Below, piece after piece: positions 6,623-22,689 of a stretch of DNA of 49,248 bases. This DNA comes from Pseudomonadales bacterium (lineage in GTDB: Bacteria > Pseudomonadota > Gammaproteobacteria > Pseudomonadales > Azotimanducaceae), in the NCBI GenBank assembly GCA_029249645.1, contig JAQWWC010000080.1, positions 1-49,248 of the forward strand, given 5' to 3'. The notes under the pieces are model-generated. The model saw only the letters and a program-made list of their open reading frames with translations, was not told where the DNA came from and did not search any database. The position numbers and the translations under genes were made by a program. Every line of letters starts with the position of its first letter. Within the stretch, counting starts at the first letter, position 1.

Positions 6623-8818
6623 ATGAACGCGCACTTTGTATCGTCAGCACTGATCTTTTGCAGTCTCTTTTTGAGCTTGAGTTTAAGCGCAAGCGGGCCG
6701 TCTTCAGCTGCAACCCTAGATCGACCAAAGATTGGCCTAGTGTTGGCGGGTGGAGGGGCTCGAGGCGCGGCTCACATCGGCGTTTTGAAGTATCTCGAGG
6801 ATCATCGCATTCCCGTGGATCTTGTCACGGGTACCAGTATCGGCGCCATTATCGGCGGTTTATATGCCTCAGGGTTGTCTGCGCGAGAAATTGAAACCTT
6901 AATGCTTGAGATGGATTGGGAGCAAGCGCTGGTTGATGACGTGCCCAGACAAGATCGCTCTATGAAGCGTAAGTTTCGAGAAGACCAGTTTTCGATTCCC
7001 GGGACGCCTGGCTATCAAGGCGGCGTATTGAAAATACCCAGTGGCGCGATCCAAGGCCAAAATGTCATTTTAGCCCTGCAGGCGATGACCCAGCATGTCG
7101 CCCACGTCATCGATTTTGATGCCTTACCGCGGCCTTTTAAGGCGGTCGCCACCGATATTGTGACCGGTGAAATGGTGGTGTTGGATAAAGGTAATTTAGC
7201 CGTCGCGCTTAGGGCCTCGATGGGCGTACCCGCAGTTTTCGCGCCGATCGAAGTCGATGGCAGGTTACTCGTCGATGGCGGCATTACCAACAACCTTCCT
7301 GTTGAACTGGCCCAGGCAATGGGCGCTGACGTACTGATTGTCGTCGACATCACCTCACCAATGTTGCCAAAGGCGGCGTTGGGTAATTTGCTGACTATCA
7401 CAGACCAACTCACGAGACTGCTTGTTGTGAACAACACGCAAGTCCAGAAGGCGCGGCTCACCGCAGACGACATCCTAGTCGTGCCCGATCTTGAGGACTT
7501 TTCTGCGGTGGACTTCAGCACCGCGGCGGGCGCGATCAAGATCGGTGAAGAAACAATCGCAGCAAAACGGCAGGCGCTTAGACCGTTCATGCAAAGCCAG
7601 GAGGCCTACGTCTCGGTCACAAAACCGACTGCCCGAAGGCCAACCGTTGCGGGCATTGACTTAGTGAACGAATCGGGTCTTGCCAACACGGTATTAAGCA
7701 AAAGGATCTTTACCAAAGTAGGGGATCGATTCAATTTGAAACAGGTAGCACGCGACGTAAACCGCATTCATGGCCTAGGTCACTTCGAGCTCGTTTCGTT
7801 TACCCAAACGCAAAAAGCAGATCAGACCGCTTTAGCCATCAGCGCCGACAAAAAGGCCTGGGGGCCCAATTATCTACATTTTGGGTTTAACCTAGAGAGC
7901 GAGTTTAAGCACGACTCAAGAGTTTCATTCTTGCTGGGTTATTCTCAGCAGGAAGTGTCTCGCTATGGGGCAGAGTGGCTAACGAGCGCAAGTATTGGCG
8001 ATGAACCCAGCCTTGAAAGTTCCCTGTACTGGCCCTTGGATCCAGCTGGCAACATGTTTGGCTATTTGACGGGCGGTTATTCTGATCGGGCACTTTATGA
8101 TTATGAAAACGAGGTCAGAACCACGGTTTATGCTTTACGTGGGTTGGAAGTGACTGCCGGTATCGGCTTTGAGTATCAGGGCCAATGGCGAACCACAGTC
8201 GGGCTTCGCCGCACCGAAGGGCGGGCCCATGCCGTAAGCGGCCTGAGTCAGCGAACCAACTTAGGGTTTGATGAGTCGAGTTTGGAATGGCGTTTTGTAT
8301 TTGATACTCGGGATGATATTGATTTCCCAGCGCATGGGGCGATTATCGATGCCAGCTGGTCGCTTTATCATGAGGCCTTGGGGAGTGAGAATCGATATGG
8401 GCAATGGACACTCCGTGCCGGACGTTACTTCGAAAAAAATGAGCACAATCTCGGCATCAATTTATATCTTGGTGCGGCGACTGATGCCCCCAGTATTAAT
8501 TCAGAGTTTCAGATTGGCGGCTACGGCCTGCTTACTGGCTTGAGCACCCAAGCCCGACGCGGGGCGGCCATGGGCGTCTTATCGGCCATTTATTATCAGC
8601 GCTATAACGCTTTGCCGGCGCTTGATGGCCTGATCGGCGTCACAATGGAATATGGCGGCGCCTGGGATAACACTGACGACGTGTCTGCTGTCGACGCACT
8701 TGGGTCACTCGGCGCCTTTGTTGGAGCTGATACGCCCTTGGGAACATTACAAATTGGCTTTGCCATCGCAGAGGGCGGTCATCGGAACTACTATACAAGA
8801 CTTGGGCGGGTCTTTTAG
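6623..8818 (+). CDS. Patatin-like phospholipase with C-terminal Omp85/BamA-type beta-barrel (PlpD-like type Vd autotransporter)
   Basis: Signal peptide. Patatin motifs are GGGARGAAHIGV (oxyanion hole), GTSIG (GxSxG nucleophile) and VDGGITNNLP (catalytic Asp). The roughly 400-aa C-terminal region is aromatic/Gly-rich and ends in ...YTRLGRVF, as expected for an outer-membrane barrel. Confidence 0.85.
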   Translation: MNAHFVSSALIFCSLFLSLSLSASGPSSAATLDRPKIGLVLAGGGARGAAHIGVLKYLEDHRIPVDLVTGTSIGAIIGGLYASGLSAREIETLMLEMDWEQALVDDVPRQDRSMKRKFREDQFSIPGTPGYQGGVLKIPSGAIQGQNVILALQAMTQHVAHVIDFDALPRPFKAVATDIVTGEMVVLDKGNLAVALRASMGVPAVFAPIEVDGRLLVDGGITNNLPVELAQAMGADVLIVVDITSPMLPKAALGNLLTITDQLTRLLVVNNTQVQKARLTADDILVVPDLEDFSAVDFSTAAGAIKIGEETIAAKRQALRPFMQSQEAYVSVTKPTARRPTVAGIDLVNESGLANTVLSKRIFTKVGDRFNLKQVARDVNRIHGLGHFELVSFTQTQKADQTALAISADKKAWGPNYLHFGFNLESEFKHDSRVSFLLGYSQQEVSRYGAEWLTSASIGDEPSLESSLYWPLDPAGNMFGYLTGGYSDRALYDYENEVRTTVYALRGLEVTAGIGFEYQGQWRTTVGLRRTEGRAHAVSGLSQRTNLGFDESSLEWRFVFDTRDDIDFPAHGAIIDASWSLYHEALGSENRYGQWTLRAGRYFEKNEHNLGINLYLGAATDAPSINSEFQIGGYGLLTGLSTQARRGAAMGVLSAIYYQRYNALPALDGLIGVTMEYGGAWDNTDDVSAVDALGSLGAFVGADTPLGTLQIGFAIAEGGHRNYYTRLGRVF

Positions 8819-8991: not shown

Positions 8992-9525
8992 TCATTCAGC
9001 CCGTTTGGGTATCTGCAAACGAATTAGGTTAGCAACCAAATCGGCTCCGGCAGTACGCACCGAGACAGATTTATCTATGGAAACAATGATACCTGACGCA
9101 TCAATATAGAAGGTCCATCGTTTGGCAAACGCGCCCGCCATTAAAACGCCATAGTCTCGCGTCATCTTTTTATCCGGATCAGCAAGAATCGGAAAGCTTG
9201 CATCGTTCTTGGTTGCAAATGCCGTGTTATCGGCTAAAGAATCCGTGCTTGCCATGAAATAGGCAACCTCGAAAGCTTGAATGGCCTCATCACTGTCACG
9301 CAGCGATTTGCACTCAAGCGTTCAGCCGCCGGTAAAGGCTTTCGGGAAAAATGCAATGACGACCGCTTGTCGACCCTTAAATTGACTCAATGTGTAGGTC
9401 TTACCGTCCGATGCAGTCAGCGAAAAATCCGGGGCATGATCCCCAATGTTCAGCCCTTGGGCTGTGGCTGCGTTGTATCCCAGACCGAAAGCCAGACACA
9501 GACAGCAAATAAAATACCCTTTCAT
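8992..9525 (-). CDS. Exported AhpC/TSA (BCP/peroxiredoxin-like) selenoprotein. The in-frame UGA at 9322-9324 is read as selenocysteine.
   Basis: ORFs 9322..9525 and 8992..9255 are in the same frame (534 nt, 178 codons), separated only by a TGA. The joined product reads ...[41 protein letters not shown]...[18 protein letters not shown]...[14 protein letters not shown] therefore occupies the peroxidatic Cys position of the Prx motif (FxPxxFTxxC), with a resolving Cys at +4. The N-terminus looks like a signal peptide ([24 protein letters not shown]). GGAG lies 9 nt before the ATG. selA and selB are in the same window. Confidence 0.75.
9275..9319 (-). promoter_or_regulatory. Candidate bacterial SECIS stem-loop directly 3' of the recoded UGA
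   Basis: The mRNA after the UGA is A-C-GCUUGAG-UGCAA-AUCGCUG-CGUGA-CAGUGAU-GAGGCCA-UUCAAGC. The outer stem pairs GCUUGA with UCAAGC. The 7-bp upper stem pairs AUCGCUG with CAGUGAU (one G-U pair). The 5-nt apical loop CGUGA contains GU and starts about 21 nt after the UGA, within the usual bacterial SECIS distance. Confidence 0.5.
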
Positions 9526-9543
9526 GATAATGCTCCGATAAAC

Positions 9544-10413
9544 CTAAGGCGCCGAGCGGGTCGTCAACATGACCTGATCCTCTGCGAATTCATTGACTCG
9601 GGAGATGACCTGATTGCCCCCTTGCGTTGAATCAAGCGGCCGCGCGATGACCTTGATCCCTCGTGTTTTTTTAGCGATATCTTGGGCTTGTACTTGGAGT
9701 ACTGGTCCGAGATTATTCGTGTCGATATCGCCTAGAGGCGCGGTGCTGGCGTAAACCGATACCGTTTCTTGGCCGAACGGTCCCTGTACCACCATGTCGA
9801 ATTTATCAAGGCCGCCCGGCACTTCGTAATTCACGCCCCCTTGGAAATAGGCATCTTGCCGGTAGGGATTGGGTAGTAACTGAAGCTTTAAACCAGTCGC
9901 ATCCTGGTAAATGATCCTGCCAAAAAATGGCTTGTTACCACGCAAATAGATCTTAAGTGCTTCATTCTCGACCAGCTCGGCTTTGTTCGTCCAAATCCGA
10001 ACCGTGAGTGGGGCACTCGGGTCGTCCTGAAACCCTCCTGCTTCTGATATTTTCTTGAGATCCTGCGCAACGGGAATAACTTCTGCTTGAATTCTAACGG
10101 TGTAACAATCGCTAGACGTTGGGTCGTCCCACTGCTGCTCGATAATCGTGAGCACTTGGACTTCCGCCTGAGCGAAAGCTTTTACGAGATCTCGCTTTAA
10201 ATTAAAGTTTTCCATTTCGGTGGTGCTTTCGATATAGCTTTTTGAAAACTCAACCGCTTGGCGCTTAGCGTCCTGAAGCGCTAACTGTTCGGTCTGTTTT
10301 TTAGAGTAATCGACCCCCATGCAGGAATAGCCCTCTGCTTCGGTGATCGAAGATTGTTGAGCGTTAACCGATAGCGCGCAAACCGCTAAAACAGCGAGCA
10401 GATAATATTTCAT
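9544..10413 (-). CDS. Secreted hypothetical protein. The N-terminal region is LPP20/FlgP-like. The C-terminal region resembles DUF4384.
   Basis: Signal peptide MKYYLLAVLAVCALSVNAQQ, taking the ATG at 10413 (the longest ORF uses a TTG at 10431). The C-terminal half (LTVRIWTNKAELVENEALKIYLRGNKPFFGRIIYQDATGLKLQLLPNPY) matches my recollection of the DUF4384 pattern. No enzymatic motif is visible. Confidence 0.65.
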   Translation of the reverse strand: MKYYLLAVLAVCALSVNAQQSSITEAEGYSCMGVDYSKKQTEQLALQDAKRQAVEFSKSYIESTTEMENFNLKRDLVKAFAQAEVQVLTIIEQQWDDPTSSDCYTVRIQAEVIPVAQDLKKISEAGGFQDDPSAPLTVRIWTNKAELVENEALKIYLRGNKPFFGRIIYQDATGLKLQLLPNPYRQDAYFQGGVNYEVPGGLDKFDMVVQGPFGQETVSVYASTAPLGDIDTNNLGPVLQVQAQDIAKKTRGIKVIARPLDSTQGGNQVISRVNEFAEDQVMLTTRSAP

Positions 10414-10431
10414 GCAATAAGATTCCAACAA

Positions 10432-11409
10432 TTAAAGAACAATAATAACGCCCGCATCCTGCATGACGCCATCCTGAATCATTTTTTCTAAGCGGCGAGA
10501 GCCTTCAGAATTGAGAACTATTTCAGTGCGAGTGTCGCCCCAAGTTCGTAACGCTTTTAAAACAACCGGACGATCGCCAACGATCGGGTGCTGCTGGGCC
10601 GTTGTAACATCCCGAGTAAACAGCGAAACGAGCTGACCTCTAGCAGCAAGGGTTTGCTGGTCGCTCATTTTAGGATAAATCACACCGGCTCGTAATTTTC
10701 TAATTTTGGGTGACATCGAGGGAATAAAATTACTCCCGCGCGCATCGATCACAATGCCCGTTGGCATTCCGCGGACCGCTTTAGGTAATCCTTTTTGATC
10801 AGTTATCAACGCTTCCAAGTTATCGAGCCGGCGTGTGAGTGTCTCAAGCGCTGTCTCGAGGCTGGATTCGTTCGCGTGGGCGGGCCTTGCAATCGCGCTC
10901 AGCACATAATCCAAGGATGAAAACATCGCCTTTTGAACGGCCGACTCCGTCGGGCCAGAGGATTGGTTATTGGGCGCAAGCACCGTTGAATAAACATCAC
11001 GTGCAAAATTGCCAGCAATCGGAGCCGTTAACGTCACTTCGCAGGTGCCATCGGCTTGGGGGCGTCGACTGGTCATCACTGCGCCTTTTAAAGAGCCCTC
11101 GACGCTGGATTTAATTAGATCACTTTCCAACATGAGTTTATCGACGATTGTAATCCCTTCAACGCGAACGCCCTGCAGAGACTCAAGCAAATTCCTCTGG
11201 GCATCAACCAAGGCGGCCCGACACGACATCATTTTGGCAAGACTCGGTGGTGTTCCAGGTTTGGCGAGCCCAGCACCCTCAGCAACCGCTGAGCCATTGG
11301 TCCAGTTTACCCCGCTGTTGGCCGCGACCCATTCAATGTAATCGTCGGCGCGGCTGACCTCTGCCGCAAAAACACCGAAGGCAATAACTATGATTCGTAG
11401 ATACATCAT
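10432..11409 (-). CDS. Secreted hypothetical protein with an LPP20-like N-terminal domain and an uncharacterised C-terminal domain
   Basis: 325 aa with a signal peptide (MMYLRIIVIAFGVFAAEVSRAD). The block AEGAGLAKPG...MSCRAALVDAQRNLLESLQGVRVEG is typical of LPP20-type lipoprotein folds. I could not assign the C-terminal GIVIDARGSNFIPSMSPKI... domain. The stop abuts the next ORF. Confidence 0.65.
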   Translation of the reverse strand: MMYLRIIVIAFGVFAAEVSRADDYIEWVAANSGVNWTNGSAVAEGAGLAKPGTPPSLAKMMSCRAALVDAQRNLLESLQGVRVEGITIVDKLMLESDLIKSSVEGSLKGAVMTSRRPQADGTCEVTLTAPIAGNFARDVYSTVLAPNNQSSGPTESAVQKAMFSSLDYVLSAIARPAHANESSLETALETLTRRLDNLEALITDQKGLPKAVRGMPTGIVIDARGSNFIPSMSPKIRKLRAGVIYPKMSDQQTLAARGQLVSLFTRDVTTAQQHPIVGDRPVVLKALRTWGDTRTEIVLNSEGSRRLEKMIQDGVMQDAGVIIVL

Positions 11410-11430
11410 GCTGATCTCATTTTTTTCGGT

Positions 11431-13323
11431 TTAGTCTTCCATGGGGCCCAAAATCGTCATCATTGAGGCCGGTGGATCGAACTTATTACCTGTCACTTTG
11501 ATGGCATAACTCGAGCTGTTCTGAATATGAAAGGGTTGGTTCTCGGTAAACTGATTACCCGATAGGCTAGGCTGCGCCTGTTCGGACAACACCATGGCCG
11601 AAGCGGAGGCATTTGTGAACGCATTGTTTCGAATCAATGGTTTTGAACTGCCAGACATCATAATGGCATTAAACGCGCCATTAACGACTGTGTCCTCTAT
11701 AATCGGGCTACCTGCCAGGATTTGGAACGGTACATTGACGTGCTGGATGCTCATACCCGCCACTCGGCTTGGTAACATCGACCTAAAGATCAAAAACGTT
11801 TGGGCCGAGACGCCTTGTTGATGCGTAACCGTAATCGGCGCAGCGGTCGTTCCCATCGCTTGAATTTCCCCCAGCACATCAATTTGCGCATTTGGTGCAA
11901 GTTCGAGTTGGACCCCCGGCTCAATCAACAAAACGCCATCAGTTGCAATACGCAGAGGGCCGGATAGGGTAAACGGACCGAAAGCCTTGCGCAGCCGCAT
12001 CGCACCTTGCACGACGGATGGTAGGGCGGACTTGACATCCTTGGCTTGGCTAAAACGCGGATCTGGCGCCGCGATCACGGTCATTTTTTGCGGTGCAGCC
12101 TGATTGCCAGCATCATCCTCCAGCATGATCTGAATTTGCGTCGGGGCAAAATCAGACAGGTCGGTGACGGTGAGGGCTTGGTTGATGGGCGCCACGCGCT
12201 GCCAAGTATCACGCCCTCGGACCCGTACAGAAACCGTTTCTAAATCGCCATCGTAGTCCGGTGACCAGGAAATTTGTACGGCGCCTGGGCGAGACGTAAT
12301 AGTGACGTCGGTCAACGCTGTCGGTGGTGTGTTATCAATCGTCATGAGGCCGTACGGCGAGACCCAGGAACTGAACTCGCCGGCATCATTCATTAGTCGG
12401 CCAACGACGCTTTCGGATTCGATATTAATCGATTGGTCGACGATCCATTGACCCGAATAGGCGCCCGAGCTGACCTCTTGAAGATCAATTAAACCGACGC
12501 CTTGAATGGCGATGCTTGCCTTCAATCCAGCATCTCCCTCGAGTGCAAAATTTACGGTCGCGCCATAGTTTAGCTTTTGGCTGGCACCGGAATGCGCAAC
12601 GCTTTGAATAACAGGGCGGTTTTTGGCCGCTAAACGCTCTGGTGCGGGCATTTCTTTGGCCAAAACTCGGCCCAAGTCATCGGCGGCACGGAACAAATTG
12701 ATGTCCCCGTACAGGTGTTTCGCCGCCGCAAGCGCGTTAACAATGATGCCCACCGGTGAGACCGAGACACCCCCTGCATAGGACCGCTGAACATTCGACG
12801 CCTCCCAAACAATTTCATCTTGGTCATTAAGCAATGTCAAACTCACGCCGACAGAAATGCGTGCCCCGACACCCGCAAAAGTCTTCTCGTAATGGGTGAC
12901 GTTGCCGGTGATCAGTCCATCAACCCCAAGAATTGTGCGCAATTTCGAGAAATCAAGGTCAGGCGCTGCGGCGGTATCAATGCCTGCTAAGGCCAGGCGG
13001 CGATCGACATCAGCCGTATGCATGACGCGATAGTTTCGGCTTGAAAAATGGTTCGACAAGGTTTGTCGAACCGCACCAATCGCCAGATCACTCGTTGTTT
13101 GGTTGCCTAAGGGCAGAACTGCAATCGTTGTGGGCAACGTTTTTTCATCGCTGGGAACTTCTGTCTCCGTCGTCTTCGACGTGCCAAGCGTCATAGCGGG
13201 ACCCGCCAAAATGCCTTCGTCGGTCTGCACGGCGCACCCACTCAAAAAGGCACCAACCGCAAGGGTGACGAACGCTAACGGTCGCGTGCGGCCCAAAAAT
13301 AGTCTGAAACGTTCGGATATCAT
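11431..13323 (-). CDS. Large modular lipoprotein: DUF799/LpoB-like N-terminal module, Ig/FN3-like middle, and a right-handed beta-helix (PbH1-like) C-terminus
   Basis: Lipobox LSGC at residues 27-30. The N-terminal module is IAVLPLGNQTTSDLAIGAVRQTLSNHFSSRNYRV. The middle section (TPPTALTDVTITSRPGAVQISWSP) is Ig/FN3-like. The C-terminus has repetitive N/G/S-rich strands (VVNGAFNAIMMSGSSKPLIRNNAFTNASASAMVLSEQAQPSLSGNQFTEN), typical of parallel beta-helix repeats. AGGAG SD. Confidence 0.7.
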   Translation of the reverse strand: MISERFRLFLGRTRPLAFVTLAVGAFLSGCAVQTDEGILAGPAMTLGTSKTTETEVPSDEKTLPTTIAVLPLGNQTTSDLAIGAVRQTLSNHFSSRNYRVMHTADVDRRLALAGIDTAAAPDLDFSKLRTILGVDGLITGNVTHYEKTFAGVGARISVGVSLTLLNDQDEIVWEASNVQRSYAGGVSVSPVGIIVNALAAAKHLYGDINLFRAADDLGRVLAKEMPAPERLAAKNRPVIQSVAHSGASQKLNYGATVNFALEGDAGLKASIAIQGVGLIDLQEVSSGAYSGQWIVDQSINIESESVVGRLMNDAGEFSSWVSPYGLMTIDNTPPTALTDVTITSRPGAVQISWSPDYDGDLETVSVRVRGRDTWQRVAPINQALTVTDLSDFAPTQIQIMLEDDAGNQAAPQKMTVIAAPDPRFSQAKDVKSALPSVVQGAMRLRKAFGPFTLSGPLRIATDGVLLIEPGVQLELAPNAQIDVLGEIQAMGTTAAPITVTHQQGVSAQTFLIFRSMLPSRVAGMSIQHVNVPFQILAGSPIIEDTVVNGAFNAIMMSGSSKPLIRNNAFTNASASAMVLSEQAQPSLSGNQFTENQPFHIQNSSSYAIKVTGNKFDPPASMMTILGPMED

Positions 13324-13335
13324 ATGTAGCTACTC

Positions 13336-14295
13336 CTAATCGTTATTATTCGATGACTCGGATTCAAGGGGTTGCGTTTTCTTACGGCCACCAAATAACC
13401 AAGATCGGTTTAGGGTTTGGGACAACGTATCCAGGCTCTTCAAGGTTGCATCAGTTGTTTTCATCAATTCGGGCAGTTGCTCTATAGCCGGCTCACCTGA
13501 CTGCAGGAGAACATCTGTTTGTTTTAAGGTTTGGGTTGCCTGATCCGTTAGCAACGCAGCGTTGGCAATGGCGGTGGCGATATCATCGCTCGAGCCTGCC
13601 ACAACATTATCGACGCGGCTTATGGTGCGATCCAACTGCGCCAAACTTTGGCTGACCGACGTAAACACGGCCGGCAGGTCTTGCGAAACACGTTTTAACT
13701 CAGTGGTTACTTCTGCAAGGTTATCCATCGTGCTATACAGGGTTTCTTGGTTATTAGCCAAGCCACCCGCTATAGACTCAACCGACGTAACAATTGTGGT
13801 GATTTGCTGGGTTAACTGCTCGAAATCAAGTGTTTCCAGCAAGGAGGCCAGGCCTTGGGGTGGTTCCGCTTCTATGTAAGCCCCGTCAATAAGAGGCCGG
13901 CCCGTTGAGGCGCCTGGTTGTAGCAGCAGGCCGCTGCCATTCAAAATAGAATTCACGCCAATCTCACTGTCGATCACCAGTTTGAGGTCTGATGTATAAA
14001 ACTGCGCGTAATTGTCGGACAAAGCGAATTCAACTCGGACCGAGCCATCGTTGCTCAGAACCACACTCTGCACAGATCCAACGTTCACCCCTTTGAGCGA
14101 AACGATGGCATTGGGAGTGATCCCATAAGTTTGATCCAGGCGCGTGTAAAAATTAAGGGTGTCTTCATCGGCGAGATCGCGCACCATCGGAATGATGAAT
14201 CCCAGTAAAAAAATGCACAGCGAGCCAATCACAAAGAAGCCAACTATTCGGTCTTTGTTGCTTACAGCAAAGGGGCGATAGGCGGAAGCGGTCAA
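13336..14295 (-). CDS. MlaD/MCE-domain protein with a long C-terminal helical extension
   Basis: N-terminal TM helix, then an MCE domain (VSLKGVNVGSVQSVVLSNDGSVRVEFAL). About 170 aa of heptad-like, Q/T/L/S-rich sequence follow. The TTG start overlaps the upstream stop (TTGA). Confidence 0.8.
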   Translation of the reverse strand: MTASAYRPFAVSNKDRIVGFFVIGSLCIFLLGFIIPMVRDLADEDTLNFYTRLDQTYGITPNAIVSLKGVNVGSVQSVVLSNDGSVRVEFALSDNYAQFYTSDLKLVIDSEIGVNSILNGSGLLLQPGASTGRPLIDGAYIEAEPPQGLASLLETLDFEQLTQQITTIVTSVESIAGGLANNQETLYSTMDNLAEVTTELKRVSQDLPAVFTSVSQSLAQLDRTISRVDNVVAGSSDDIATAIANAALLTDQATQTLKQTDVLLQSGEPAIEQLPELMKTTDATLKSLDTLSQTLNRSWLFGGRKKTQPLESESSNNND

Positions 14296-14957
14296 ACTGA
14301 GCTCTCAACCAATTGATTCGCCTTTATTTTTAACACTTGATCCACCTCACGTAAAACATGTTCATTTGAAGACGTCAGCAAGACCGTCATATTCTCCTTC
14401 CGCGCTTTGTCTTTTAGCAACTCCATGGTGCTATCAATCATGTCGTCAGGCATGCCGCCCTCGAGTTCGTCGATCAGTAACAACTCAGGCGACATCACCA
14501 GCGCGCGCGCTAGATTAACCAGGCGGGTTTGGACATCGTTAAGTTCATGGGGCTGCATCCAAACAAGTGTGTTGGGCACATTAAGCGCCTCAATGGTCGT
14601 ATCAATCAATGATCGAGTCTGGTCAAAAGTTAAATCGGTATGAAATTCAAGGGGTAATGCAATGTTTTGAAATACATCATAAAGACTAATTAAACCTTCA
14701 TCTTCATATACAAAGCCAACCTTGCGCGCGCGTTCGCTCGCAGGCATCGTTAAGATATCGCGACCGTTCAAAATTGAACGTCCGTCAATATCAGAAAGCA
14801 TCCCGCCAATGCCTTTTAACAAGGATGTCGCACCATCCAAGACGTCGGTTTCAATCCCGATCAAACTGCCAGCAGGAAACTGAAGGTTGAGTCGATCGAA
14901 GAGTAAGACCTCTGGGTATTCGATGTGGAGGTTCTCGAGAACCAACGAGCCGGTCAT
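14292..14957 (-). CDS. MlaF-like ABC nucleotide-binding-domain homolog with degenerate catalytic motifs (predicted pseudo-ATPase)
   Basis: The ABC NBD layout is recognisable: VGFVYEDEGLISLYDVFQNIALPL in the Q-loop region, and LLLIDE as Walker B. Walker A is IETDVLDGATS instead of GxxGxGK[ST]. The signature is LNDVQ instead of LSGGx. The H-loop region is LTSSNEH. Both gene junctions are ATGA/TTGA overlaps. Confidence 0.75.
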   Translation of the reverse strand: MTGSLVLENLHIEYPEVLLFDRLNLQFPAGSLIGIETDVLDGATSLLKGIGGMLSDIDGRSILNGRDILTMPASERARKVGFVYEDEGLISLYDVFQNIALPLEFHTDLTFDQTRSLIDTTIEALNVPNTLVWMQPHELNDVQTRLVNLARALVMSPELLLIDELEGGMPDDMIDSTMELLKDKARKENMTVLLTSSNEHVLREVDQVLKIKANQLVESSV

Positions 14958-15841
14958 TGGGTGTAGGCCAAAACAGATAACAGGATATTGATCACGAAGA
15001 ACACCATGAGCTGCGTTGTGGTCGAGTTCGATATAGCGTCCGAGACTTCGGTAAAACTGCTTTCCACTTTTGCGCCAAAATGGATTGAGATGACCCCAAT
15101 CATCATACCGCCAAGCACTGCCTTTAAACCGTTGATCGCGATTTCGTTGAGACTGATTTGATTAAGGATGGCTGATAGCAAGGCGAAAAAATCTGCGTCT
15201 GGGTTTGACAGCCAAATCATGGCGTAGCTGGAAAGAAAAACTACGAGATCAAAATAGATAAACATTAAAAGCAAGGAGAGCGGGAAGGCAAAAAAAACGG
15301 GAAGTAAAAACAAAAATACCGGACTGATGCCCAACCCATTGAGCACCTGAAATTCACGACGCAACCTAAGATAGCCAATTTCCGCTGTGATCGCGGTCGC
15401 GGAACGCGCGATTAGGATCACGCCTGAGATCAACGGCCCTAGCTCTCGAAATACGATCACCATAAACAAATAACCAAATTGGTCTTCCATGACCTGATTG
15501 GGAATATAATCAAACAACCTCGAAATAATGAGGGTGCCAACCAAAATCCCGATCGCGCCATTGATGTAGAGCGCCCGAACGCCGGTGTTGTAGATCTGCC
15601 GGTAAAACAACGCCATAAAGATACCACGACGTTTTTTTTCAAATAACAATTTGCTGGCCGCAAGCGCAACAGAAATCAGGCCAATCAAATCCATGACCGT
15701 TCTGGTCAACTGCGCTACCGGGTTTACCAGCATTTTGAGCGGACCAAGTACGGTAAACCGATTGGGCACGTCGTAATCAACCGACTCGACCCTCATTGGC
15801 TCATTAGACTTTTGCTTTGGAAGATCGTCAGCCAGGTTCAT
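14954..15841 (-). CDS. MlaE-family ABC permease-like protein
   Basis: 295 aa and polytopic. It has the MlaE-type pattern (FYRQIYNTGVRALYINGAIGILVGTLI ... REFQVLNGLGISP). The stop overlaps the NBD start codon (ATGA). Confidence 0.8.
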   Translation of the reverse strand: MNLADDLPKQKSNEPMRVESVDYDVPNRFTVLGPLKMLVNPVAQLTRTVMDLIGLISVALAASKLLFEKKRRGIFMALFYRQIYNTGVRALYINGAIGILVGTLIISRLFDYIPNQVMEDQFGYLFMVIVFRELGPLISGVILIARSATAITAEIGYLRLRREFQVLNGLGISPVFLFLLPVFFAFPLSLLLMFIYFDLVVFLSSYAMIWLSNPDADFFALLSAILNQISLNEIAINGLKAVLGGMMIGVISIHFGAKVESSFTEVSDAISNSTTTQLMVFFVINILLSVLAYTQ

Positions 15842-15927
15842 ACTGGGAGGGCCAATGTCCGCGTGACATCAAATTGCGCTGTTCTGGCGAGCACTGGCTT
15901 CATCTCGCAGGCCCTATGCAGGTTGCA

Positions 15928-16926
15928 TTACACACGCGCCAACATCCTGTCGTGCTCTCGGCGCAGTATTCTCAAAAGGGTGGGCAAACGTTCCTCGGTC
16001 ATGACATGCGCCTCGAAAATGGCTTTAACCTCTTCATAGGGCCGCTTTCGCAATAACAGCCTGAAGTTGTGCCGTAACGGCTTAAAGTCCTCTTGGTCTA
16101 ACAAGCGTTCAACCGCATCGGCAAAATCATCGTAGTTGCCCGCATCAAAAGCTTTGCGGGCTCGCAGCAAGCGAAACCGCATACTCAAGGGGGACAGGAG
16201 TGAGTTCAACAGAAATGCTGTGAACAGCGCCAAGAACGTCACAATGAAGTCACCCACTTTATCTTTGGCAATGCGAATCCACTCAGCGAGCGCTGTACTG
16301 GTTTGTGCCTCAAGAGTCGTTCTGATTTCGGTTACATAAGATTTTGCGACAGGGTTCAGCGGATCGATCTGAAGTGCCCGCATAAATTCAGATTCCGCCG
16401 CCTGAAGCGCATTCATTTTATAAAGCGCTTCTCCCTTGAGCGTATAAAAATCCGCTTGTCGGTCTGGGAACGCCACAAGCGCTAAGTCGGTAACCGCAAT
16501 CGCTGTTGCGAAATCTTTAAGCTCGATCCGCTTTTGGGCGAAAATAATGGCCCGTTTTTCACTGCTCACGATGCGCTTAAACGCTCGCCGGACTTGCACA
16601 CCTAACTCAGCCACATCTGACCGAGTCTTGGCTAACCCTTCGATTAGGTTTTCAGCTTCACTGAGTCGATCGCTTCCAAGCAATAATTGAACCTCTAGTG
16701 CGACTAACCGCGGGTGGTTGTCAAAATTATCTCGTTCAGTTTGCAGCAGTTTAATAGCGCCTCGAGTCTGATTTTGGCTTTGGAGCCTGGCAGCATCCTC
16801 TAAGACCTTCGCGACAGGCCCAGGTAACGCCGATGACGCTATTACGGATTCATTATTTTCGGCAGCAACGGACGAACACACAGTGATGAGGGTCACGAGA
16901 ATCATGGAAGATAAGTAATTTGTCAT
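15928..16926 (-). CDS. TPR-like repeat membrane protein (signal/anchor, periplasmic helical repeats, one TM, cytoplasmic tail)
   Basis: N-terminal hydrophobic segment, then helical-repeat sequence (DFYTLKGEALYKMNALQAAESEFMRALQIDPLNPVA). A TM helix FIVTFLALFTAFLLNSLL lies near residue 230. AAGGTG SD. This is the first gene of the minus-strand cluster. Confidence 0.7.
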   Translation of the reverse strand: MTNYLSSMILVTLITVCSSVAAENNESVIASSALPGPVAKVLEDAARLQSQNQTRGAIKLLQTERDNFDNHPRLVALEVQLLLGSDRLSEAENLIEGLAKTRSDVAELGVQVRRAFKRIVSSEKRAIIFAQKRIELKDFATAIAVTDLALVAFPDRQADFYTLKGEALYKMNALQAAESEFMRALQIDPLNPVAKSYVTEIRTTLEAQTSTALAEWIRIAKDKVGDFIVTFLALFTAFLLNSLLSPLSMRFRLLRARKAFDAGNYDDFADAVERLLDQEDFKPLRHNFRLLLRKRPYEEVKAIFEAHVMTEERLPTLLRILRREHDRMLARV

Positions 16927-17161: not shown

Positions 17162-19036
17162 CTACCGCCTCGGATGTCGTAGGTTACCGTCCCGACGGGT
17201 AAGTCCTTTCTGATCAAAATACTCTAACAGTTCGATACAGAGGTTTCGGCCCATCCCCGAAGCATCACGATACTGTTGGACCGTAAACGGGCGTCCGCTG
17301 GCTACCGATTGCGTTAACGAAATTAAGTCCGCGATGGTTTTTGGCTCAAAAAACCGGTTTTTAACCGGATGCACCAATAAGCCCGCTTTGGCACAAGCCT
17401 GCAAATGCTGATTCAACTGTTTGGGATCGACATTAAGCTTTGCTGCGAGGTCATGCAGTACGGGCGGTTGTTTTGGATTCTCAGAAATAAGAGGGATGAC
17501 CTGCTCTAAAAGTCTTCGGGTTTGCTCAGGTAAGGTTGCCTGCGCCCCGGGTCGATGCAACAGTGACCCGGATTGTAAGATCACGCCTTCTACTTTGAGC
17601 TGTGTAATAATCGCGTCGCGATAGAGACAGGCTTTGGGTATCAACGCTAGGAGTTTCGGGTAATCCATTCCCTGAAGCGTGGGATGGTTTTGATGCCAGT
17701 CTTCAAGTGCTTTAACCAATCTGCTTTTCGCATCCGAAAAGTCTACCTGCGAGACCAAAATGCCATTCACATCACTAAGGGTCGAATGGTCCTTCAAAAA
17801 AGCAGTGATGCGCTCAGGCTTCCAATTCAGAATGCGCTCAACGGTTTCAACTGCCACACCGTGACCGGTACCGACAACGAGTCGCAACAGATAATCGGCA
17901 TCGCTAGTTGCCTCGGAAAGTTTGGCTAAAAGCGCAACACGCTCGGGTTTTGCACGGCCGCGGCTTTGCGCGAGTGGGTTGAGCACAAAACCGCTGGCAA
18001 TGGTTCGGGTCGCGCCTTGATCTCGAAAGATGAGCCGGTCGCCATAACACAAAGAGAGTGGCGCGCTCGTCACCAATTGCACGATACCCGACGTCCCAGG
18101 TTTGATTTCAGGCCCGTTCAAGGTCGCAAGGTGCCCTAGGGTGTGTTGTGCCGCATGGTGCACATGAACCGAGGTCCAATGACGGATGGACTTGTTTTCC
18201 GCGGGTAAAGTCTGCAGCACAATGTCGCAATGACGCTGCGCGGTCATTCTTGGGTTGGCCGTTAACCAGTCGCCCCGCGCCAGTTCATTTAAGGCGGCTT
18301 GTTGACCGGTCAAATTCAAGGCTGCACGATCTCCGGCGCTGGCCGATGGACTTACAACGTTCTGCCGATGCAACCCCCGAACCTTGAATGATTGCGACTG
18401 GTTCGGAGCAGATAGTGTGTCGGATAAACCAATTTTGCCAGTGAGGATGGCGCCGGTGACCACAGTGCCTGCTCCTTTGATAGAGAAGCTTCTATCAATC
18501 GCCATCCGAAAATGACCAGCGTCAGACCGATGCTGCATCCTTTGTGCATGGGCCTTTAGCGCTGTGATTAATTCGGCTTTACCGATTCGGCTAACGTTTG
18601 AACAGGGAATCACCTGGCTTTGCTCGAACGACGTCCCGTGCAGTTGCTGGACAATTGTAGACTTGACCTCGAGACAACGCGCGGGTTCAACCCGATCAAC
18701 TTTTGTCATAGCAACCAGCAGGGCAGGGACCCGCAGGGCTTCGAGAATGGCCAGGTGCTCGAGTGTTTGGGGCATCATGCCATCGTCGGCGGCAACCACC
18801 AGCAGCGCTAGGTCCACTGCTCCAACCCCCGCCAACATATTGTTAATAAATTTGATATGACCCGGAACATCTACAAAACCGACCGACAGATCGTCTATTT
18901 GCGAATAGGCAAACCCTAAATCTATCGTGAGCCCACGATCTTGTTCCTCTTGAAGCTGATCGGTTTGGATACCCGTTAGCATTTCGACAAGACTTGTTTT
19001 CCCGTGATCAACGTGGCCGGCGGTTGCAACTATCAT
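17162..19036 (-). CDS. selB: Selenocysteine-specific translation elongation factor SelB
   Basis: 624 aa. The N-terminal GTPase has MIVATAGHVDHGKTSL and DVPGH. The long C-terminal winged-helix region that binds SECIS is present. There is a 4-nt overlap with selA. Confidence 0.9.
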   Translation of the reverse strand: MIVATAGHVDHGKTSLVEMLTGIQTDQLQEEQDRGLTIDLGFAYSQIDDLSVGFVDVPGHIKFINNMLAGVGAVDLALLVVAADDGMMPQTLEHLAILEALRVPALLVAMTKVDRVEPARCLEVKSTIVQQLHGTSFEQSQVIPCSNVSRIGKAELITALKAHAQRMQHRSDAGHFRMAIDRSFSIKGAGTVVTGAILTGKIGLSDTLSAPNQSQSFKVRGLHRQNVVSPSASAGDRAALNLTGQQAALNELARGDWLTANPRMTAQRHCDIVLQTLPAENKSIRHWTSVHVHHAAQHTLGHLATLNGPEIKPGTSGIVQLVTSAPLSLCYGDRLIFRDQGATRTIASGFVLNPLAQSRGRAKPERVALLAKLSEATSDADYLLRLVVGTGHGVAVETVERILNWKPERITAFLKDHSTLSDVNGILVSQVDFSDAKSRLVKALEDWHQNHPTLQGMDYPKLLALIPKACLYRDAIITQLKVEGVILQSGSLLHRPGAQATLPEQTRRLLEQVIPLISENPKQPPVLHDLAAKLNVDPKQLNQHLQACAKAGLLVHPVKNRFFEPKTIADLISLTQSVASGRPFTVQQYRDASGMGRNLCIELLEYFDQKGLTRRDGNLRHPRR

Positions 19037-20427
19037 CCAGCTATAACCGCTTCGAGCCCAGCCAAAAGCGGTTCTGGTTGATACAGGGTGCGCAGGTCCA
19101 GCAGCAACCTAGACCCCGTTATGCGACCTAAAATTGGTATATCGACCTGTCGAAGGCGCGTGGCGAGACTCATAATCGCTTCGTTGGGGTGTGTCGTGCC
19201 CTGGGCGCTGATTGCGATCGCCCAGCTCGGCAACAAGTCAATGGGTAGGGCGCCGCTGCCAATCTGGCTTTTAGCGCTGACCAGCGCGGCGTCAAAATCG
19301 TTTCCTAAGTGCGCTGTAACCGCTGGCAGCAGCGTCTCGCCAAACTGTTTTATCGCCGCTTCGGACCTGGCTAGGTCTCGCAAGGTGGGTAGATGTTCTA
19401 CCAAGCTTTCTGGGGTTAGATACAGCTTTAAAACGGCGATCAAGGCGGCCAAGGTCATCTTATCGACCCGAAGGGCTCGCTTCATGGGGTTTTGTTTGAT
19501 CAGAGCGATGGCCTTAGCCGTACCGACTATTAATCCAGCTTGAGGGCCGCCTAATAGTTTATCCCCGCTAAAGGTAACAATGTCGGCGCCACTTTGAACC
19601 GCTTCTTGCACCGTTGGCTCTGGCGGCAAGCCGTATTGGCTAAGATTTAACAAGGTCCCGCTGCCGAGATCGGTCATAAAGGGCAGATCAAATTCGTGGG
19701 CAAGGGCAGCCAAGTCACTTTCGGCGACGCTTTCGGTAAACCCTTGAATTTGATAATTGCTGGTATGGACTTTCATCAGCATGGCAGTCTGATCGGTTAT
19801 CGCCGACTTGAAGTCCGACAGGCGCGTTCGGTTGGTAGCTCCCACTTCGACTAGACGACATCCTGAACGCGTCATAATCTCCGGCACGCGAAAGGATCCG
19901 CCGATTTCAACCAATTCGCCTCTCGACACAGGGACATCTCGGCCCAGGGCGAAGGTGTTGAGAACCAACATAACCGCCGCCGCATTATTGTTCACAACGG
20001 TAGCCGCTTCCGCGCCGGTGATTTCCTTCAAAAGGTGCTCAAGGGGTAGGTCTCGATCGCCGCGCTTTCCGGTTTCCAAATCGAACTCTAGGTTACTTGG
20101 GCTGCCTGCGACACGTTGCACCGCATCGAGTGCTACCTGCGGCAAGCTGGCACGGCCTAGGTTAGTGTGAAGAATCGTTCCGGTTAGGTTTAGCACCGTC
20201 TTTAAAGTTGGATTGGTAGCACTAAGCACTGATCTGATGTTGGCAAGTAACGCGTCATCCGACGGCAGTTCGAGTTCAGTAGTTGCGATATCGCGTCTCG
20301 CCGTTGCAAGCGTCTCGGCAATGACCCGAGCGACACGAGTTCGACCAAACTCATCGACTAGAATGCGGCCCGCTGCCGAGCATAATAACTGATCGACTCC
20401 GGGTAAGTGTTTAGCAGATTGCGACAA
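19033..20427 (-). CDS. selA: L-seryl-tRNA(Sec) selenium transferase SelA
   Basis: 464 aa. It has the typical SelA N-terminus (LPGVDQLL) and the PLP-lysine block FSGDKLLGGPQAG. Confidence 0.9.
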   Translation of the reverse strand: MSQSAKHLPGVDQLLCSAAGRILVDEFGRTRVARVIAETLATARRDIATTELELPSDDALLANIRSVLSATNPTLKTVLNLTGTILHTNLGRASLPQVALDAVQRVAGSPSNLEFDLETGKRGDRDLPLEHLLKEITGAEAATVVNNNAAAVMLVLNTFALGRDVPVSRGELVEIGGSFRVPEIMTRSGCRLVEVGATNRTRLSDFKSAITDQTAMLMKVHTSNYQIQGFTESVAESDLAALAHEFDLPFMTDLGSGTLLNLSQYGLPPEPTVQEAVQSGADIVTFSGDKLLGGPQAGLIVGTAKAIALIKQNPMKRALRVDKMTLAALIAVLKLYLTPESLVEHLPTLRDLARSEAAIKQFGETLLPAVTAHLGNDFDAALVSAKSQIGSGALPIDLLPSWAIAISAQGTTHPNEAIMSLATRLRQVDIPILGRITGSRLLLDLRTLYQPEPLLAGLEAVIAG

Positions 20428-20430
20428 GGA

Positions 20431-22689
20431 TCAATCCATAGGGCCGATCGGTTGCATTGCTTTTTGCAACGATCCAACCGTTCGAATCCAAGGTTCTATG
20501 CCGTTATCGTATTGCACCATCCAGGCTTGTTTTGCATCACTGGCCAGCTGGATGTCGTTGAATGTGTCCAAAACTAAAACATAAAGCGGGCGTTTCATTA
20601 CCTGCGTTTTCAGCACCAGCGGGTTTTCAAGGTTGACCGTTGTGGCAAGTGTCCGAATCGCGGCAAGATTCTTTTCGGCCTTGAGCTGAATCGCAAAATC
20701 ATCTGAAGGAAGGTCCATGAAGTAATCATAAGTTCCATCGCCAGACGTTGCAGGGCTATCCATCGACGCATAATCTAATCCCGATGAGCTCGCAGGAACC
20801 GGATCCAGTTTAGAGGCTGAGGCCACCGCGTTTACCAACGGTGCAGCTTGCAACGGTGCAGTTTGAGTTAAACGCGTGATTGATGTTTTGGACCGCTCGG
20901 TTGCGCGCTTGAGTTGTACTGGCGTTGGCTTCGGGCCAATGCGCCGCGCAGGTGCCGCTGACGCGACTGCCGGCATTGGAACTGCGCCTTTTGGCCCTAA
21001 GGTTTGCAGCGTGATCGGTAATTGTTCAGCGCGATTTACATGGTCCGCATAGACCTCAGCCAAAGTCGTCCCAGCGGGGAAGGGCTCGGTTGCTGGGATT
21101 ACAATTTCTGTCGTAATCATTGCGACATTCGGGCGATCAGTTTCTATGATGGACTGAGCCGCAACGCCCTCAATTGCTATTTTTGGGGCGTCACCTTGGG
21201 TATCCGCCAAGATTGCCTGCGTCGCCTCAATGGATGCAGGCGCTACAGTCGTTTCTAAAAAAGTCGGCGCAGATACGGTTTGTTCACTGATCAATGCTAA
21301 TTCGGAGGTTGCGATTTCAATGTCGACCTGTGGGACTTCAATTGCTGCAGAAAGTGCAGGCTGCGGCAGTTCGGTGAGTGTACTTATCGCTTCAATTACT
21401 TCTTCAGAAGCTGGCTCGGCAGACGCTGCAATCGGCGCGCGGACATCGGGCATGTCTGCCACAGTTGTCATAGCTGTTAATACGGTTGTTGCTGCAGGCA
21501 GCGCCTCTGTCAGAGTATTGGTCGCGGTTGTCGTGAGCGCTGTCAGATCGGGCGTCGCCAGTAGGGCGGTTGTTGCAAACGTTGAAATCGAAACGCTCTC
21601 GTCCTGATCAGTCTCAAGAAGTAGCTGAGGGGTTGCCTTTACTGCTGGCAGTGAAGCACCACGGTCAGCAACTTCAATCTGAAGATTCTTTTCATCAAGG
21701 CGCTCAGTTCGCCCTGTTTCTGAGGTTACGGTATCGGATAATCTGGTTTCTGGTCGGTCGATCTCAGGCGATATAGCCTCCTTTGCGACCACTTCTGACC
21801 CTTCTGCGTCTAATGACGCCTTATTTACACGCAAATCATTTGGACTCAGCACGTCAGGGAAGCGCCCGGCGCCAAATCTCGGCGAGGCTTTTGGTGCCCG
21901 CGTAGACGCTCTTAAGGTGATTGTTTCTTCATTGGGTACTTTGGGTTGTGATTTCGTCAAGGCGCCTGCATCAACAGCAGCTGCCAAAGATTGCGTCTCC
22001 AAGACAGCGGCAGATGGGCTTGAGGGTTCGGTGGTGAAACCTGTCCCGCCAGGGCTCAAACCCAAAGCGCTTTGTGCAATTATGTCATTTAGCGATTGTT
22101 TATCATCGTTTTTTATAGATTCCTTCGCTGCAGCATGCGCCGATACAAAATGGCCATCAACGGGCCTTTGATCAATTTCCTCCGGCAAGATTTCGGCGAA
22201 TACGGTGGGCTCAGGCGCAGACTCTTTCGAAACAGTTGCAACCGAGCGGCCTTTGTCATCTGTCGCGTGCGCGCCTTGGGCCAGTTGCTCTGGCACTGCC
22301 TTCAGCAGAGCCACACGATTGACCTCAGCGGGCTCAAGGTCAAACGCGCCTGCTGGCTCAGCAACCTGGCTCGGGATTCGGCTCAACTGAGCGAACCCTT
22401 TTGAAATGGCGTCGTGCTTGTTTTGAGCTTCTTCTATGCTGCTCGCGCAAGACCAGTCTTTCGCCTCAAGGTGGCCAATACAAAACCATCTTGTTTCATT
22501 GTCTCGATACGCCTGTTTGGACTGTTGAACACACGCTGGGTTCGACAGATCGGCATCGTCTCCAGAACAAGGGTCCTTACTCATCCAGCTGCACCCGGCC
22601 AAGCCCAAACAGGACAACGTTGTACTTAAAATCAATAACGCGCGTTTCATAAAACGATCCAATACCTTGACTCTCGCATGATAGTTCAT
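20431..22689 (-). CDS. SPOR-domain lipoprotein with a long low-complexity A/T/E/P-rich linker (DamX-like architecture)
   Basis: Lipobox LGLAGC. About 550 aa are low-complexity. The C-terminal SPOR-like domain reads DDFAIQLKAEKNLAAIRTLATT...YVLVLDTFNDIQLASDAKQAW. The ATG at 22689 overlaps the upstream stop (ATGA). An alternative ATG lies at 22650. Confidence 0.7.
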   Translation of the reverse strand: MNYHARVKVLDRFMKRALLILSTTLSCLGLAGCSWMSKDPCSGDDADLSNPACVQQSKQAYRDNETRWFCIGHLEAKDWSCASSIEEAQNKHDAISKGFAQLSRIPSQVAEPAGAFDLEPAEVNRVALLKAVPEQLAQGAHATDDKGRSVATVSKESAPEPTVFAEILPEEIDQRPVDGHFVSAHAAAKESIKNDDKQSLNDIIAQSALGLSPGGTGFTTEPSSPSAAVLETQSLAAAVDAGALTKSQPKVPNEETITLRASTRAPKASPRFGAGRFPDVLSPNDLRVNKASLDAEGSEVVAKEAISPEIDRPETRLSDTVTSETGRTERLDEKNLQIEVADRGASLPAVKATPQLLLETDQDESVSISTFATTALLATPDLTALTTTATNTLTEALPAATTVLTAMTTVADMPDVRAPIAASAEPASEEVIEAISTLTELPQPALSAAIEVPQVDIEIATSELALISEQTVSAPTFLETTVAPASIEATQAILADTQGDAPKIAIEGVAAQSIIETDRPNVAMITTEIVIPATEPFPAGTTLAEVYADHVNRAEQLPITLQTLGPKGAVPMPAVASAAPARRIGPKPTPVQLKRATERSKTSITRLTQTAPLQAAPLVNAVASASKLDPVPASSSGLDYASMDSPATSGDGTYDYFMDLPSDDFAIQLKAEKNLAAIRTLATTVNLENPLVLKTQVMKRPLYVLVLDTFNDIQLASDAKQAWMVQYDNGIEPWIRTVGSLQKAMQPIGPMD

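Follow-up and report, generated by a model that had tools for sequence, protein, structure and literature searches.

MCE bridges that work without an ATPase have precedent in PqiABC and LetAB (PMC13631591, PMC12436622), and the Mpc system of Brucella abortus (MpcEFDA, an Mla-Pqi chimera) joins MlaEF, a needle MCE protein and an outer-membrane lipoprotein in a stable trans-envelope complex (PMC12436622). In Pseudomonas aeruginosa, PA3213/PA3214 comprise an MCE protein with its PqiC-like lipoprotein (PMC13631591). The locus described here lies in a 49,248-nucleotide stretch of DNA (hereafter the window) from a Pseudomonadales bacterium of the Azotimanducaceae (GenBank assembly GCA_029249645.1, contig JAQWWC010000080.1), where eight consecutive open reading frames (ORFs) were arranged head-to-tail on the minus strand at 8992-16926. 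Seven of them, encoding a TPR membrane protein, an MlaE-type permease, an MlaF-like nucleotide-binding domain (NBD) protein, an MCE protein with a coiled-coil tail, a lipoprotein of 630 amino acids (aa) and two secreted proteins of 325 and 295 aa, recurred in the same order in about 90 loci at identities down to about 30%, and are apparently a conserved, undescribed envelope gene set of uncultured marine bacteria. The eighth ORF encodes a selenocysteine (Sec) peroxiredoxin.

Full-text literature searches that covered DUF4384 together with MlaD, DUF799/LPP20/CsgG combinations, degenerate MlaF and non-flagellar FlgP gave no description of this gene set or of a pseudo-ATPase MlaF clade, nor did NCBIfam, Pfam or PADLOC contain one, in agreement with a preliminary description of the locus, which knew of no characterised system of this composition. 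The eight ORFs and the span given in that description were all found again, with small corrections only, and profile searches (Pfam, NCBIfam or PDB) confirmed every one of its domain assignments. Its junctions also held: the spacing between the TPR gene and mlaE was 86 nt, two 4-nt overlaps were present (14954-14957, start ATG; 14292-14295, start TTG), and the remaining junctions included one 12-nt gap, one 21-nt gap and the 325- and 295-aa genes, which abut as ORFs. Judged by the orthologue alignment, the 295-aa gene starts with the ATG at 10413 and not with the TTG at 10431, so that this abutment is probably an 18-nt gap and the product a protein of 289 aa. A promoter scan gave no sigma-70-like site and terminator-like sites were at chance level, results that are neutral on the operon question.

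Related loci were collected with two probes: a profile of the 630-aa lipoprotein searched against one genome per GTDB species (29 loci), and a pseudo-NBD motif search of JGI metagenomes (72 loci, 68 of them with true pseudo-NBDs). Neighbours were counted only in loci with a contig long enough. The MCE gene lay beside the pseudo-NBD gene in all 53 loci and mlaE adjoined it in 53 of 54; the TPR membrane protein gene was present in 35 of the 40 pseudo-NBD loci with enough upstream sequence, and the genes for the 630-, 325- and 295-aa proteins were near the pseudo-NBD in 33/37, 28/32 and 20/26 loci respectively (the last with enough downstream sequence). With the 630-aa probe, the same gene order was found in about 25 GTDB species. 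The ratio of non-synonymous to synonymous substitutions (dN/dS) was 0.04-0.11 for all seven genes. According to the record titles, the carriers were uncultured Pseudomonadales (including Candidatus Azotimanducaceae/HTCC2089), Arenicellales and unclassified Gammaproteobacteria; Tara and other assemblies of marine metagenomes often contained the proteins. Co-conservation of the seven genes, TPR to 295, thus extended across families and orders. Their arrangement goes far beyond what chance would give, and their adjacency was not limited to this genome.

The permease, pseudo-ATPase, MCE protein and TPR protein

The MlaE-type ABC permease (295 aa, 14954..15841, minus strand; Pfam MlaE 3.3e-33) had the MlaE proteins of P. 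aeruginosa and Escherichia coli as its nearest solved relatives and scored below the NCBIfam equivalog cut-offs. The MlaF-like protein encoded next to it (221 aa, 14292..14957, minus strand; ABC_tran 1e-10) had Acinetobacter baumannii MlaF as its best PDB match (7d06_B, 2.2e-18). Residue alignment showed that the Walker A motif, GPSGTGKTT in MlaF, was ETDVLDGATS in the window protein (GTGKTT replaced by LDGATS), that the Q-loop Gln was replaced by Glu, the signature LSGG by LNDV and the H-loop His by Ser, and that the C-terminal extension of MlaF, of about 50 residues, was missing. An earlier reading of this protein as an NBD lacking all catalytic motifs was right for the Walker A Lys, the Q-loop Gln, LSGGQ and the H-loop His, but not for Walker B, whose Asp-Glu was kept (LLLIDELEGGMP).

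The same replacements were identical in 27 orthologues, were found in 120 of 120 database homologues down to 44% identity (Walker A in none of the 120) and persisted in members from metagenomes that were only 32-41% identical; VLDG[GA]TSL, LNDVQ and DELEGGM[PS], the motifs that stand in for the catalytic ones, were nearly invariant. Together with a dN/dS of 0.08 with respect to a close relative (0.04-0.11 for the other six genes), this conservation indicates that the NBD is not decaying, and the protein is predicted to be a stable pseudo-ATPase, conserved as such. A decaying or accidental cluster, in which a pseudogenised Mla paralogue happens to lie beside unrelated lipoprotein genes, would account for the loss of catalytic motifs, but is extremely improbable and was refuted by the dN/dS values of all seven genes, by a gene order kept at about 30% identity and by the invariance of the replacement motifs.

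The near-invariant motifs point to a retained binding surface, and together with the Walker B Asp-Glu they would fit an energised or gated transporter, in which a nucleotide or second messenger bound by the pseudo-NBD gates the channel, or another partner supplies the energy. This explanation is considered improbable: the Walker A Lys and glycines, the Q-loop Gln, the signature and the H-loop His were absent in every member, and no second ABC ATPase gene was found in any of about 100 related loci.

The MCE protein (319 aa, 13336..14295, minus strand; Pfam MlaD 1.6e-9) had a single MCE domain behind an N-terminal transmembrane (TM) helix, and its coiled-coil tail, about 150 residues long, ended in a tip with the sequence SWLFGG. 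The NCBIfam model for mycobacterial MCE proteins (TIGR00996, Mtu_fam_mce) matched over residues 23-295 (4e-14), and PDB matches included LetB and Mce1. The tail showed a 3.5-residue heptad periodicity (power 188, vs. less than 25 for other periods) that was phase-coherent over residues 150-300, and a continuous coiled coil of this length would measure about 22 nm if unbroken. No indels were present in the tail among Pseudomonadales and Arenicellales orthologues; they did occur in the distant loci L093, L094 and L099. The tip was conserved as SWL[FL]GG, with the variants HWLLGG, NWLLAS and SWILGS in distant loci.

The TPR protein (332 aa, 15928..16926, minus strand; Pfam TPR_19/TPR_16) was predicted to be a bitopic inner-membrane protein with a signal-like N-terminus, a periplasmic TPR region, one TM helix at about residues 227-249 (hydropathy) and a cytoplasmic tail of 85 residues. 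Among orthologues, conservation was highest in the juxtamembrane, TM and cytoplasmic parts, whereas the N-terminal TPR region varied and was sometimes truncated. The conserved TM helix and tail suggest that the protein is a subunit of an inner-membrane complex, where it may stand in place of MlaB; they also run counter to the preliminary statement that every non-core component faces the periplasm or outer membrane.

MlaB (STAS), MlaC and MlaA were found neither in the cluster, nor among window ORFs of at least 150 aa, nor in the related loci, which bears out the earlier observation that the first two were missing beside this Mla/MCE core with a dead ATPase and extends it to MlaA. The cluster resembles the MlaFEDB-MlaC-MlaA system of E. 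coli and A. baumannii in its permease and NBD, for which these are the closest solved relatives, and in the single MCE domain on a TM anchor. It is not a canonical Mla system, since its ATPase is predicted to be inactive and MlaB, MlaC and MlaA are missing; it also differs in the loss of the MlaF extension and in the 150-residue coiled coil, which is absent from MlaD.

With Mpc the cluster shares the organisation, in one operon, of an MlaE/MlaF-type module, a single-MCE coiled-coil needle and an outer-membrane lipoprotein; Mpc has been proposed to connect the inner and outer membranes (PMC12436622). The Mpc ATPase is, however, described as an ordinary ABC ATPase and its outer-membrane partner is PqiC-like, in contrast to the conserved pseudo-enzyme found here and its GNA1162/Ig/Fn3/beta-helix lipoprotein, two SHS2 proteins and bitopic TPR protein. 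No cluster protein had a PqiC-type (ABC_trans_aux) Pfam match, and an extra lipoprotein encoded in relatives was TPR-like; with no PqiC-like lipoprotein found, the cluster is not a Pqi/Mpc-type system either. PqiABC and LetAB are MCE bridges without an ABC ATPase, and the C-terminal coiled-coil needle of PqiB is capped by an outer-membrane lipoprotein, but their inner-membrane partners PqiA and LetA belong to another family and their MCE domains are multiple and stacked. The mycobacterial Mce1-4 systems are similar in the TIGR00996 match over the MCE and helical regions, the Mce1 PDB match, their MlaE-like permeases and their many accessory proteins; they differ in their heterohexamers of six Mce proteins, active MceG ATPase and mycomembrane. 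In its working, the cluster would most resemble the needle-type MCE bridges.

The lipoprotein and SHS2 proteins and the two modules

The 630-aa lipoprotein (11431..13323, minus strand; Pfam GNA1162-like, DUF4959, Beta_helix and NosD) contained, in order, a lipobox (LSGC, Cys30), a disordered linker of 30 residues, a GNA1162/DUF799-like domain, an Ig-like domain, Fn3 and a right-handed beta-helix. Profile matches were obtained to Pfam GNA1162-like (2.5e-6), PDB 4hrv (2.4e-8) and Fn3 domains. An AlphaFold2 (AF2) model (pLDDT 83) searched with Foldseek matched 4hrv_B (TMt 0.71) and tandem Fn3/Ig structures, confirming GNA1162 and Ig/Fn3 and adding no functional lead. Neisseria GNA1162 (DUF799) matches the N-terminal domain in sequence and fold and shares the lipobox, but is a single domain of about 170 residues, of unknown function, whereas in the 630-aa lipoprotein Ig, Fn3 and beta-helix parts are joined to it. 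Cys30 was invariant among orthologues; no Asp or Glu of the beta-helix was, which argues for binding or structure over catalysis.

The 325-aa protein (10432..11409, minus strand) carried a FlgP/LPP20 (SHS2) domain with a hairpin and conserved Cys63/Cys123, and a helical linker connected it to a C-terminal domain that was itself highly conserved. The match of the single sequence to LPP20 was weak; the orthologue profile matched Campylobacter jejuni FlgP (9hmf_C, 9.5e-14) and the further FlgP entries 8z5n, 9yds and 9yfg, and the N-terminal domain aligned without gaps to residues 70-167 of C. jejuni FlgP, hairpin insert included. In FlgP this hairpin, between a helix and the second strand, has been tied to ring formation by an in situ motor study (PMC12222027). 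The AF2 monomer model of the 325-aa protein (pLDDT 56, with a low-confidence hairpin) was too poor for a fold search. The C-terminal domain (about residues 215-325; PTGLVIDARGSNFIPSMSPKIR...HPxVGxRPxVLKALRTWG) was nearly invariant among orthologues and had no Pfam match, even across 35 distant relatives, and no PDB profile match. It recurred in hundreds of proteins of 320-380 aa elsewhere, for instance in a Desulfoplanes "LPP20 family lipoprotein", and the 325 superfamily comprised 2238 cluster representatives at E<=1e-10.

The second secreted protein (295-aa ORF, 9544..10431, minus strand; DUF4384 3.8e-17, FlgT_N 2e-5) contained a FlgT_N/SHS2-like domain with conserved Cys37/Cys109, DUF4384 and the C-terminal motifs KTRGI and EFAE. 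The N-terminal domains of the 295- and 325-aa proteins were related to each other (hhalign probability 77%, E 2e-5). Both proteins had conserved Cys pairs and cleavable signal peptides and no conserved lipobox Cys; the signal peptides and Cys pairs, along with the lipobox of the 630-aa protein, place all three outside the cytoplasm. The SHS2 fold is shared with FlgP and FlgT (Campylobacter, Vibrio) and with Helicobacter pylori Lpp20, and the 325-aa protein has the ring-associated hairpin as well. The Sel1, peptidoglycan-binding and lytic transglycosylase domains of the relatives also recall the repertoire of periplasmic scaffolds of flagella. The differences are the cleavable signal peptides in place of lipoboxes, the extra C-terminal domain and DUF4384. 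No flagellar genes were found in any locus. In one Tara lineage (L037, 14529-16064) the 295-aa homologue was a 511-aa fusion of DUF4384 and a cyclophilin-type peptidyl-prolyl isomerase.

The association of the permease, pseudo-NBD and MCE genes with these three proteins, which the preliminary description had asked to be surveyed, held for most loci in the proportions given above but was not universal. In L093 (3315-6525), L094 (8375-11750) and L099 (2831-6048) a minimal form was found, composed of a TPR-like lipoprotein, MlaE, a degenerate pseudo-NBD (35-41% identity) and the needle MCE protein, without the 630-, 325- and 295-aa proteins and amid housekeeping genes. A convergent gene for a giant repetitive protein of about 2770 aa lay downstream in L099 and L100. 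Conversely, the 630/325 gene pair, which was together in every lineage, occurred without Mla genes within 10 kb in Magnetococcales and Mariprofundus. The Magnetococcales loci combined the pair with SLH, TPR/CsgG-like, FlgT_N and SpoIID proteins, and that of the cultured Mariprofundus sp. EBB-1 (L029, 2657-21845) encoded 630-, 325- and 295-aa homologues, an SLT lytic transglycosylase, an SLH-TPR protein, a 757-aa TPR-CHAT protein, a 1653-aa OmpA-WD40-Peptidase_C14 protein and a further WD40 protein. Judged by this distribution, the gene set is made up of two putative modules: module A, with MlaE, the pseudo-NBD and the MCE needle, and module B, with the 630-, 325- and 295-aa proteins. Because Mariprofundus carries the 630/325 pair, the stalk-formation (sfz) cluster of Zetaproteobacteria was also considered, and was rejected, its BcsAB-like and glycosyltransferase genes being unrelated.

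Most gammaproteobacterial relatives had additional genes: a TPR-like lipoprotein between the TPR gene and mlaE, two or three further 325 paralogues, an SLT/MltC_N enzyme, an SLH-TPR protein, a PG_binding_1/Sel1 protein, a divergent Peptidase_C14/SH3/Sel1 gene and two unknown proteins. None of these extra genes was present in the window, whose cluster is a reduced version. The TPR-like lipoprotein of the relatives had no significant profile similarity to the TPR membrane protein and was not PqiC-like. In the wider clade, at least 15 loci had a conserved gene of about 200 aa without a Pfam match next to the cluster (e.g. L002 13845-14453, L004 13962-14633 and L036 18428-19027). Its orientation was mostly convergent with the 295-aa gene, and it was not in the window.

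The proteases of these loci raise another explanation, an exopolymer or surface-protein processing system, or a conflict system, organised around caspase-like/CHAT proteases and the beta-helix lipoprotein, with the Mla-like genes secondary. DUF4384 is often found with caspase domains, many polysaccharide-active proteins have a beta-helix fold, the divergently placed Peptidase_C14/Sel1/SH3 gene was conserved in 14 of 27 loci, and the Mariprofundus CHAT-TPR and OmpA-WD40-C14 proteins would fit the same scheme. The window and its nearest relatives had, however, no proteases locally, no locus contained glycosyltransferase or polymer-export genes, and the beta-helix has no invariant acidic residue, so that little probability is given to this explanation. 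Anti-phage defence was discarded, PADLOC having returned no meaningful defence match, only trivial coiled-coil and caspase ones.

The Sec-peroxiredoxin and the surroundings of the cluster

The last ORF encoded a BCP/PrxQ-type peroxiredoxin with a signal peptide (8992..9525, minus strand; Pfam AhpC-TSA 2.5e-30 with the read-through translation), predicted therefore to be periplasmic. Its start codon was the ATG at 9525-9523, which leaves 18 nt behind the 295-aa gene, and an in-frame TGA (codon 68, 9324-9322) encoded Sec at the peroxidatic position. A SECIS-like hairpin followed the Sec codon (about 9270-9321; -23.5 kcal/mol, z = -4.4), the motif FFPK[AT]FTGG-TGA-T was present in 30 related loci with the codon TGA in 30 of 30, and dN/dS was 0.18 overall and 0.11 in the mature part, corresponding to purifying selection. 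No Rfam family matched the SECIS at gathering thresholds, and no tRNA-Sec gene (selC) was found in the window. The gene is a genuine selenoprotein gene. Its product resembles Sec peroxiredoxins of the BCP/PrxQ type and the related NCBIfam PrxU in the replacement of the peroxidatic Cys by Sec, the SECIS hairpin and the presence of selAB, but differs in its signal peptide and in scoring below every NCBIfam equivalog cut-off. The putative decoding machinery for the Sec codon, selB (17162-19036) and selA (19033-20427), was encoded directly upstream of the TPR gene on the same strand (17162..20427; Pfam SelA 4.6e-153, SelB domains).

The preliminary description had treated the eight genes as one unit, which the comparison narrowed to the seven discussed above. 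The peroxiredoxin gene lay directly downstream of the cluster only in the clades nearest the window, which also shared the synteny of selAB (limited to L006, L008, L010, L012-L015, L035, L038-L049 and others) and of a PlpD gene. It was split off by an opposite-strand gene in L020 and L026, lay 4.7 kb away in L022, and was missing within 10 kb of many full clusters. The Sec-peroxiredoxin is thus a lineage-specific neighbour and not a core component, and may be co-expressed with the cluster in the lineage of the window; the earlier idea that it acts on a lipid cargo is pure speculation.

A patatin and Omp85 (PlpD-type) outer-membrane phospholipase gene (6623-8818, plus strand) was convergent to the peroxiredoxin gene on its downstream side, and this pair was syntenic in every close-clade locus, more tightly than the peroxiredoxin with the Mla-like cluster. 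Directly upstream of selA, a 752-aa ORF (20431-22689, minus strand) had no Pfam match even at E 0.05; related loci nonetheless kept this gene beside selA (29-72% identity), a consistent link to the Sec machinery in this clade.

The other genes of the window were ordinary chromosomal ones (LolCDE, ComEC, ClpB, a GreA/GreB-family elongation factor, MsbA-LpxK), base composition was unremarkable, and Rfam and tRNA scans of the window gave no matches. A PilZ-domain protein gene (25835-26431, minus strand) adjoined the LolCDE-type lipoprotein-release ABC transporter (26577-29720, plus strand), whose ATPase motifs were fully canonical and served as an internal reference in the comparison of NBD motifs. 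At 46059-48926 (plus strand), one ORF of 955 aa corresponded to an MsbA-type ABC exporter (ABC_membrane and ABC_tran) fused to LpxK (tetraacyldisaccharide 4'-kinase); msbA and lpxK are separate adjoining genes in E. coli, and the ORF may be a real fusion or an assembly or frameshift artefact.

A possible trans-envelope bridge

An NBD unable to hydrolyse ATP would suit a static, ATP-independent structure, and the gene set is tentatively read, at somewhat less than an even chance, as a two-module envelope complex: a trans-envelope MCE bridge docked to a ring scaffold. In the inner membrane, module A would consist of an MlaE dimer clamped on its cytoplasmic side by a dimer of the dead NBD and probably also touching the TM helix and cytoplasmic tail of the TPR protein. 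The MlaE dimer would carry an MCE hexamer on top, whose heptad-tail needle, at about 20 nm, would be long enough to reach the outer membrane, where the 630-aa lipoprotein and the 325- and 295-aa SHS2 proteins would build a ring or cap that takes the SWLFGG tip. Phospholipids, or some other hydrophobic molecule, would cross the assembly passively, as has been suggested for PqiABC and LetAB, and would not be pumped. This reading would imply that the proteins form one complex, that needle and ring dock, and that the cargo is a lipid moving passively in some direction.

Several points weigh against such a bridge. The modules occur apart in other lineages, so that their adjacency could reflect co-regulation and not one machine, and in the absence of a PqiC-like lipoprotein, MlaA and MlaC the known MCE routes to the outer membrane are missing. 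The lytic transglycosylases, peptidoglycan-binding proteins and caspase-like proteases of the relatives are not obviously needed by a lipid bridge. The retained Walker B and the conservation of the replacement motifs may indicate ligand binding or regulated gating, and the predicted structure of the 325-aa protein is a poor model.

The main rival to the bridge is a structural strut or scaffold without a conduit, in which the Mla-like module is only an inner-membrane anchor. Coiled coil and FlgP/FlgT-like rings would together make up a non-flagellar disk in the periplasm, which would fix the spacing of the envelope or hold a surface structure in place and would be inserted with the help of peptidoglycan-lytic and peptidoglycan-binding partners. 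The dead ATPase, the three to five SHS2 ring-former paralogues per locus, the SLT, SpoIID, SLH, PG_binding_1 and OmpA partners of the relatives, the fixed needle length among Pseudomonadales and Arenicellales orthologues and the occurrence of module B without any MCE protein are all in line with a scaffold. Against it, conservation remained high in full-system loci, at 59-96% identity for MlaE and 43-97% for the MCE domain, with lower values of 46-53% and 26-29% in the most divergent loci, L092-L104. The minimal module of MlaE, pseudo-NBD, MCE protein and lipoprotein, which persists alone, is also easier to understand as a transport-type unit sufficient in itself than as a mere anchor of module B. 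A pure scaffold is considered less likely than the bridge.

A related proposal, possible but rather doubtful, is a non-flagellar machine in which a needle on an ATP-dead base enters, or docks with, FlgP/FlgT-type and GNA1162/beta-helix rings. The ring module would then be older and independent, being shared with Zetaproteobacteria and Magnetococcales, where it occurs alongside peptidoglycan-lytic enzymes and caspase-like proteases.

Two consequences concern module B itself: the C-terminal domain of the 325-aa protein is a conserved domain without annotation in a superfamily with thousands of members, and Mariprofundus sp. EBB-1 offers a tractable organism for the lipoprotein module. The movement of lipids between the membranes of Gram-negative bacteria is still debated, and MCE systems are central to that debate. 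If the proposed machine of needle and rings is true, the gene set would represent a new trans-envelope architecture and the first ABC transporter family with a permanently non-catalytic homodimeric NBD. SHS2 ring formers have so far been described chiefly in flagellar disks, and as partners they suggest a new mode in which an MCE needle meets the outer membrane, and a stable clade with a dead NBD would be a natural experiment in which the role of an ABC module as scaffold or conduit could be seen apart from its role as motor.

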